DNA from: Escherichia coli
GTDB lineage: Bacteria > Pseudomonadota > Gammaproteobacteria > Enterobacterales > Enterobacteriaceae
NCBI RefSeq assembly: GCF_003334255.1
Contig: NZ_QOWU01000094.1
Direction: 5' to 3' (one strand)
Length of the DNA stretch: 7,711 nucleotides
The translations under genes were made by a program, and so were the position numbers. How positions within the stretch are numbered: the first letter of the stretch is position 1; each line of letters starts with the position of its first letter. The notes beneath the pieces are model-generated. The model was not told the origin of the DNA. It did no database searches and saw only the letters and a list, made by a program, of their open reading frames with translations. Below are positions 5,797 to 5,894 of this stretch, one piece after another.

Positions 5797-5820
5797 AAAA
5801 CCCGCTCATCAGCGGGTTTT
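5797..5820. terminator. Bidirectional intrinsic terminator; tR'-like on the minus strand and the end of the cspF transcript on the plus strand
   Basis: AAAA-CCCGCT-CATC-AGCGGG-TTTT, a 10-bp stem with flanking A/T runs. U-tracts follow on both strands (plus TTTTCTACTTTTTC, minus TTTTGTGCTTT). Confidence 0.65.
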
Positions 5821-5850
5821 CTACTTTTTCTTAACGTCGGGTATACAAAG

Positions 5851-5894
5851 CCCATCGTTGAAAAAATTTTATCCATATTTTTTGAAAAATGCAA
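5851..5894 (-). promoter_or_regulatory. pR'-like late promoter with sigma70-dependent pause element (Q engagement site)
   Basis: Minus strand has -35 TTGCAT (5894..5889), a 17-bp spacer, -10 TAAAAT (5871..5866), then TTTTTC and CAACGATGGG (5860..5851). Lambda pR' as recalled is TAAATT-TGACTC-AACGATGGG, the same 6-nt spacing to the same 10-mer. The promoter begins about 32 nt after the quuQ stop. Confidence 0.6.

Follow-up and report, generated by a model that had tools for sequence, protein, structure and literature searches.

A probable late regulatory cassette of the lambda Q type downstream of quuQ in the Qin prophage of Escherichia coli

The 7,711-nt stretch of Escherichia coli DNA analysed here (the window) corresponds to the Qin cryptic prophage, a defective prophage, and exhibits 100% identity with many E. 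coli genomes, including K-12 derivatives. Window positions were obtained from the K-12 annotation by subtracting 1636563 from the NC_000913.3 coordinate. Read along the minus strand, ydfU is followed by ydfT/quuQ (5926–6678), a late promoter with its leader, the converging plus-strand genes cspF and ynfS, cspB, the essQ-ydfR-rrrQ-rzpQ/rzoQ genes and cspI. The gap between the promoter and essQ is approximately 1.8 kb, the oppositely oriented cspF and ynfS included. In related phages the order is Q, promoter, terminator, holin and lysin; phage 2H10 encodes Q, promoter, terminator, cspF and cspB in the same order as Qin, so a complete phage genome can accommodate the cold-shock insert. The RefSeq annotation of the Qin region contains no late promoter, pause site or terminator, and a literature search for the late promoter of the Qin prophage returned only general pR' papers and none on the Qin elements. 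The larger features of the locus are as follows.

5926–6678, minus strand: ydfT/quuQ, encoding a lambda-family Q antiterminator of 250 aa (K-12 annotation, phmmer, Pfam and alignment)
4475–4494, both strands: strong, symmetric terminator-like hairpin AAACCCGCTCAGGCGGGTTT between cspB/ynfU and essQ
2467–4022, minus strand: lysis cassette essQ-ydfR-rrrQ-rzpQ/rzoQ (converted from the K-12 annotation), the putative target of antiterminated transcription

The hairpin at 4475–4494 also serves a Term-seq 3' end on the plus strand, at 1641060 (window 4497); it probably terminates in both directions and would have to be passed by late transcription. A search of the whole window with Rfam covariance models at the gathering threshold gave no match at the leader and only two matches elsewhere, both to the cspA thermoregulator and both on the minus strand (4760–5152, 158.8 bits; 1865–2250, 112.8 bits), covering the 5' regions of cspB and cspI respectively. 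The late region of the prophage thus includes cold-shock genes that carry their own RNA thermosensors and lie on the same strand as the late transcript.

The gene immediately upstream of the promoter encodes QuuQ, a Q protein of the lambda family. This assignment is borne out by phmmer, which aligned QuuQ over its full length with lambda Q (PDB 7UBM chain Q, E=6.8e-35), and by Pfam, which identified two PF03589 matches (9e-31 and 1e-19) together with one DnaJ_CXXCXGXG match. Yin et al. 2022 (PMC9388147) equate PF03589 with the lambda-type Q family and set it apart from two other, unrelated families of Q proteins. An alignment shows 40–43% identity between QuuQ and the Q proteins of lambda, P22, phi80 and HK225. 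Conservation is good at both ends of the protein, in the first 50 residues and in the C-terminal tail, whose counterparts form the RNA-exit-channel nozzle in lambda Q. The zinc-ribbon arm of QuuQ contains approximately 48 extra residues (~114–160) and two more CxxC pairs than lambda Q and P22 gp23, the added pairs giving the DnaJ CXXCXGXG-like match, and the Q proteins of phi80, HK225 and mEp460_ev081 feature even longer insertions at the same position of the arm. In lambda Q, it is this arm that touches both DNA and sigma region 4. A literature search returned no functional study of quuQ/ydfT. Since the neighbouring gene encodes a lambda-family Q, a lambda-like pause element is expected here from common descent. 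On the opposite strand, a Rho-dependent termination region is listed at ~6452 (plus strand; NC_000913.3 1643015), antisense within ydfT/quuQ (Adams et al., PMC7815308).

The quuQ stop codon (TAA, 5928–5926, minus strand) is followed by 31 nt and then by the -35 hexamer of the late promoter. All of the elements originally predicted for this interval, namely TTGCAT, a 17-nt spacer, TAAAAT, TTTTTC, AACGATGGG and a hairpin, can be read on the minus strand. With the RNA 3' end as mapped, the feature extends over 5793–5894 rather than 5797–5894, and its parts are listed below in the direction of transcription.

5889–5894, minus strand: -35 hexamer TTGCAT of pR', from the sequence; aligns with lambda TTGACT
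5872–5888, minus strand: 17-nt spacer TTTTCAAAAAATATGGA, putative Q-binding element (QBE), near-invariant in relatives and positioned by analogy with lambda
5866–5871, minus strand: -10 hexamer TAAAAT of pR', from a promoter scan and the sequence; TAAGAT or TAGGAT in relatives
5860–5865, minus strand: discriminator TTTTTC, from the sequence
5859, minus strand: transcription start (+1), the first A of AACGATGGG, from dRNA-seq, 7 nt after the -10 hexamer
5851–5859, minus strand: sigma-dependent pause element AACGATGGG, a -10-like AACGAT (+1 to +6) followed by GGG (+7 to +9), identical to that of lambda pR' at the same spacing
5842–5846, minus strand: sigma-70-associated in vivo pauses with 3' ends 13, 16 and 17 nt from the start
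5797–5820, minus strand: tR' intrinsic terminator hairpin AAAACCCGCT-GATG-AGCGGGTTTT, with a 6-bp GC core (CCCGCU/AGCGGG) that can be extended by A-U pairs
5793–5859, minus strand: terminated leader RNA of 67 nt, delimited by the start site and a Term-seq 3' end in the context ...AGCGGGUUUUGUGC

The start of minus-strand transcription was predicted near 5858, and a dRNA-seq start is located at 5859 (NC_000913.2 1640446, minus strand; Thomason 2015, quoted in Sun et al. 2021 Supplementary Data 1, PMC7876045). Conversion from NC_000913.2 to NC_000913.3 adds 1976 in this region, after which 1636563 is subtracted to reach the window position. The offset was checked on a second promoter, for which the start at 1635870 (minus strand) converts to window 1283, exactly 7 nt after a TATCTT hexamer that has TTGATT 17 nt further upstream. 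The 1976-bp lead of NC_000913.3 at Qin is made up of an IS1 of 776, a further 1 and an IS5 of 1199. The supplements of the ROSE and SMRT-Cappable-seq studies contain no entry for the Qin start site, and in the P22 record the late RNA has its 5' nucleotide at the equivalent A. The -35 hexamer TTGCAT is weak, agreeing with three of six consensus positions, and the promoter scan favoured TTTGCA with an 18-nt spacer over it. TTGCAT is invariant in the 10 aligned relatives, and the phi80 record annotates the identical hexamer as the -35 of its pR'. In lambda, Q binds between the -35 and -10 elements (PMC9388147). The Qin spacer matches that of lambda at only 10 of 17 positions, and a QBE is therefore not recognisable by sequence; the spacer hardly changes in relatives that differ in the sequence encoding the C terminus of Q, and this conservation fits constraint.

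Immediately downstream of the discriminator is the pause element AACGATGGG, which the original prediction gave as identical in lambda pR' and equally spaced there; the lambda record, which reads TTGACT-17-TAAATT-TGACTC-AACGATGGG, agrees on both points. The lambda-type sigma70 pause predicted on this basis is present in the sigma70-affinity RNET-seq data from greAB-deleted cells, in which the 3' end 1640429 (minus strand; window 5842, 17 nt from the start) has a score of 6881 and is 12th in the list, and 1640430 (minus strand; window 5843, 16 nt from the start) has a score of 5783 and is 24th, both scores and ranks being those of the greAB-deleted-cell sheet (PMC7876045). Supplementary Data 2 of Sun et al. 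gives a further pause at 1640433, at a distance of 13 (PMC7876045). Pauses 16–20 nt from the start that are associated with a -10-like element are considered mechanistically the same as the pause at lambda pR' (Sun et al. 2021, PMC7876045). Within the lambda-type Q family, AACGATGGG is exact or almost exact in P22, HK225, SI8 and SPN3UB, and exhibits one change in phi80, YeP2 and mEp460_ev081. According to Nickels et al. in 2002, a -35-like TTGACT located 1 bp upstream of the lambda pause element reportedly receives sigma region 4 in the Q-loading complex. This motif is present in lambda and P22 and absent from Qin, which has TTTTTT, and from its relatives, which have TTTTCC or TTCTCC; it is not family-defining, because most of the other family members are without it. 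The repositioning of sigma region 4 in the Q-loading complex has been described (PMC9388147).

Strong pauses may also be present in the DLP12 prophage (NC_000913.3 ~577229), as the second and fourth strongest sigma-70 pauses of Sun et al. (version-2 start 576452, plus strand) convert to positions approximately 169 nt upstream of essD. The essD gene heads the DLP12 lysis cassette, and this may be a second prophage lysis-gene promoter with a strong promoter-proximal pause. For DLP12, an offset of +777 from version 2 to version 3 was assumed.

The leader was predicted to be terminated after roughly 60–70 nt with its end near 5797, and the observed length is 67 nt. Its 3' end is a Term-seq end at NC_000913.3 1642356 (minus strand; window 5793), which is classed as 'orphan' in the context ...AGCGGGTTTTGTG[C]TTTAAATGGG (Adams et al. 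2021 Supplementary file 1, PMC7815308). There are three entries for this end in the file, which covers LB OD 0.4, LB OD 2.0 and M63 (PMC7815308). The distance of 8 nt from the GC stem to this end is what intrinsic termination would give. The size of the Term-seq scores was not used as a measure of abundance because the scores of the plus and minus strands differ by orders of magnitude. The 67-nt leader folds with -26.2 kcal/mol (z = -5.55 against shuffled sequences). The hairpin itself had been predicted in its presence and its location downstream of the pause element, and two details are revised: the loop on the transcribed strand is GATG, the CATC given for it being the plus-strand reading, and the hairpin begins at +40, 30 nt beyond AACGATGGG, rather than about 40 nt further on. 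The records of SfV, Ayreon and HK225 annotate a terminator at this site.

A second minus-strand Term-seq 3' end is found at 5625 (NC_000913.3 1642188), 168 nt past the leader terminator and antisense to ynfS, and is listed on one of two sheets and absent from the other. Some RNA is thus present past the terminator even though no Q activity is known, and this 3' end could be the product of readthrough or belong to a separate transcript. A weak promoter-like site is located at 5669–5640.

Open reading frames across the leader were rejected as genes. A 51-aa ORF with a TTG start (5739–5894, minus strand) has its start codon upstream of the mapped transcription start and its frame runs through the terminator; a small CDS annotated over the leader in phage HannyBb (1283–1420) also begins upstream of the mapped start and crosses the terminator. 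Where some phage records call small ORFs over the leader, these are probably false genes. In E. coli strain 81, the leader is interrupted at +27/+28 (window 5832/5833) by an IS1 element with the target duplication CCCGACGTT, and the transposase genes of this IS1 are in the direction of the late promoter. A query made from the IS1 junction had a full exact match in only 1 of 5426 genomes, that of strain 81.

The module, which runs from the end of Q through promoter and leader to the terminator, exhibits 80–94% nucleotide identity with SfV, mEp460, Ayreon, 2H10, Stx2c-converting phages and Salmonella phages including 118970_sal3. In an alignment of 10 sequences, the invariant or near-invariant parts are the -35 hexamer, the spacer TTTTCAAAAAAT(A/C)TGG, the T, the A and the final AT of the -10 hexamer, and AACGATGGGCTTT, and the promoter and pause region is conserved above the level of the adjoining coding sequence. 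Approximately 50 further IMG/VR variants gave the same picture of conservation. A search for related loci with the Q alignment returned only close relatives at 92–100% identity, which added more variants and no new lineages. The terminator is variable, yet it always folds, with stems of CCCGCU/AGCGGG, CCCGC/GCGGG, CCUCGC-UUCG-GCGGGG and ACCGC/GCGGU that include compensatory changes. Homology to phages without cspF ends at 5797, just past the hairpin, and the whole module, end of Q included, is thus exchanged as one block.

More distant members of the lambda-type Q family have Q proteins of 33–42% identity. P22, phi80, HK225, SPN3UB, YeP2 and mEp460_ev081 each contain a -10 hexamer, 6–7 nt, an AAnGATGGG-type element and a terminator with a T-run starting at +52 to +68; lambda and SI8 are exceptions, with leaders of approximately 190 nt. 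Because most of the distant members have short leaders, the short Qin leader is the common form in the family, and P22 and phi80 are closer models for it than lambda 6S RNA.

The locus is very probably a Qin late regulatory cassette of the lambda-Q type. Each part that characterizes such a cassette was found here: a Q gene of the lambda-type family immediately upstream of the promoter, an active sigma-70 promoter just downstream of Q, a -10-like element in the initial transcribed region with a sigma-70 pause at about +16 to +18, and an intrinsic terminator yielding a short RNA. Promoter activity, sigma-70 pausing and termination into the 67-nt RNA are observed in the mapped entries for the locus. 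The sigma-70 promoter TTGCAT-17-TAAAAT fires at 5859, the retained sigma-70 re-engages AACGAT (+1 to +6), and RNA polymerase halts with a 17–18-nt RNA. Without Q, the polymerase stops at the hairpin and U-tract, giving the 67-nt RNA with its 3' end at 5793. QuuQ, if produced, is expected from its family membership and from the gene order to bind the conserved spacer between the -35 and -10 hexamers, and it would presumably load on the paused complex and form a nozzle at the RNA exit channel as lambda Q does. The modified polymerase is then predicted to ignore tR' and later terminators, such as the hairpin at 4494–4475, and antiterminated transcription may pass the cspF/cspB insert into essQ-ydfR-rrrQ-rzpQ. 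The original prediction described the site as the control point for the whole lysis cassette; both this role and QuuQ-dependent readthrough are suggested by homology and gene order. Points that weigh against the cassette reading are the weak -35 hexamer, the limited agreement of the spacer with that of lambda, the TTTTTT in place of TTGACT beside the pause element, the defective state of Qin, the greAB-deleted background of the pause list, the second 3' end at 5625 and the 1.8-kb distance to essQ.

A different function for the short transcript was also considered, in which the promoter and terminator form a free-standing small-RNA gene producing a constitutive 67-nt RNA with its own function, as in the case of StxS, and Q control is a relic. 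The Qin RNA has its 3' end in the three entries of the three-condition file and its promoter gives a top-ranked pause signal; the leader is also well folded and features the A-rich stretch AAGAAAAAGUAGAAAA. StxS provides a precedent, and its authors propose antiterminated phage promoters as a source of regulatory RNAs (PMC7547250). However, the middle of the leader, A-rich stretch included, is the least conserved part among the relatives, the U-tail is short (UUUUGUGC), and no Hfq or ProQ binding data and no target were found for the Qin RNA; in addition, both quuQ and the lysis cassette are intact, which suits ordinary Q control. The small-RNA reading is considered unlikely, and it would supplement the Q-dependent cassette as the main explanation and not replace it.

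The 5' end of the RNA exhibits a further pattern. A CGTT block (5833–5836) is complementary to the first four transcribed bases AACG (5856–5859) on the minus strand, and across the lambda-type Q family the complementarity takes in the first four or five bases. The CGTT/CGUU block is found at +16 to +28 in every lambda-family Q late leader examined and predicts a stem at the extreme 5' end; the minimum-energy fold pairs the 5' end with this block in 11 of 13 leaders. When covariation was scored within the Qin group (22 distinct leaders), 97% of the cells pair and there is one double change (AAAG with CUUU), a result that 83 of 500 shuffles equal. Variants that keep the pairing are AAAG/CUUU, AAUG/CGUU, UGUU and several that preserve a wobble, and a few do not (AGUU). 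A function for the 5' stem or for the abundant Qin RNA, whether in RNA stabilisation, in keeping Q threaded or in a StxS-like action on other RNAs, is conceivable but doubtful.

The hairpin was also weighed as mainly a terminator of the convergent plus-strand cspF-ynfS transcript, with the upstream promoter-like sequence incidental. It is symmetric, with an A-run and a T-run on each side, and the terminator scan called it on the plus strand, where it is followed by CTACTTTTTC; the run of four A residues 5' of the stem occurs only in relatives with cspF downstream (Qin, HannyBb and 2H10). The hairpin may thus also work in both directions. The mapped 3' end, however, is on the minus strand, and among the Term-seq entries for this region no plus-strand 3' end is listed at the 5797–5820 hairpin (164236x–164239x). 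Moreover, the terminator with its T-run on the Q-sense strand is kept in SfV, mEp460, SKA5 and Salmonella phages, all of which are without cspF, and the start site and sigma-70 pause indicate that the promoter is active. The minus-strand 3' end and the retention in cspF-less phages rule out a role solely as the cspF terminator, and termination of cspF-ynfS as the main role is very improbable. A functionless chance arrangement of promoter- and terminator-like sequences in AT-rich intergenic DNA can be practically dismissed: the promoter scan of a 700-bp stretch did return 3 sites against a shuffled mean of 1.6, and the -35 is weak, but the start, pause and 3' end are all experimentally mapped, conservation exceeds that of the adjacent coding sequence, AACGATGGG is expected 0.07 times in the window, and the composite pattern, with 3 mismatches allowed, was found in 0 of 200 shuffles.

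With the lambda-Q-type assignment, E. coli K-12 gains a defined Qin late promoter, pause site and terminator. Three anonymous genome-wide entries, namely an 'orphan' Term-seq 3' end, a dRNA-seq start without a gene and a sigma-70 pause among the strongest in greAB-deleted cells, would then be parts of one textbook cassette. The locus pairs a chromosomal lambda-type pause and Q-loading site with a long-arm Q, and could be useful for studying how an enlarged zinc-ribbon arm recognises DNA and sigma region 4. The known mechanism is unchanged by the Qin cassette, which is a previously unannotated example of a textbook class.

Of the named systems, lambda pR' has a Q of the same family just upstream, a -35, a 17-nt spacer, a -10, a 6-nt discriminator and the identical AACGATGGG at +1 to +9, and it also features a sigma-70-dependent pause at about +16 to +18 and an intrinsic terminator that gives a short RNA without Q. 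The late leader of lambda (6S RNA) is approximately 194 nt in length. It differs in this from the 67-nt Qin leader, with which only the first 9 nt and the CGTT block are common and beyond which the two cannot be aligned; SI8 has a long, lambda-like leader. The lambda spacer and the -35-like TTGACT, which is TTTTTT in Qin, set the two promoters apart, and lambda Q is without the extra residues and the two additional CxxC pairs of QuuQ. The analogy to lambda 6S RNA drawn in the original prediction holds for function and does not extend to sequence homology, and P22, phi80 and HK225 are nearer to Qin in layout. P22 (P-late and gene 23) and phi80 (pR' and gp17) resemble Qin in having a short leader, with the T-run at +55 in P22 and +68 in phi80 compared to +60 in Qin, and their records annotate the promoter, a qut or Q-binding site and tR'. 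The phi80 system also shares the TTGCAT -35 and a long-arm Q protein with Qin; it differs in its pause element (AACGCT), its spacer and its Q, which is approximately 40% identical to QuuQ. P22 gp23, also at about 40% identity, has a short arm like that of lambda Q.

StxS is a short constitutive RNA from the late promoter of Shiga-toxin phage that ends at tR' in lysogeny; it undergoes processing to 74 nt, and its binding to Hfq and its targets are established (PMC7547250). The Qin leader is likewise a short terminated RNA from a late promoter, and there is no sequence relationship between the two. In the data set with the 'G1d' sigma-70 promoter-proximal pauses of Sun et al., a class likened there to lambda pR', the Qin site is listed 16–17 nt from the start, with a -10-like element approximately 11 bp after the -10; the Qin pause is neither named nor discussed by those authors and differs in being located in a Q cassette and not upstream of a host gene. 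Close counterparts are SfV, mEp460, Ayreon, 2H10, the Stx2c phages and 118970_sal3, which are complete phage genomes with the same invariant promoter, spacer and pause element, a terminator in the same place and a Q protein of 92–94% identity. These phages differ from Qin in the genes that follow downstream, and their records annotate at most the terminator, with no promoter or pause element.
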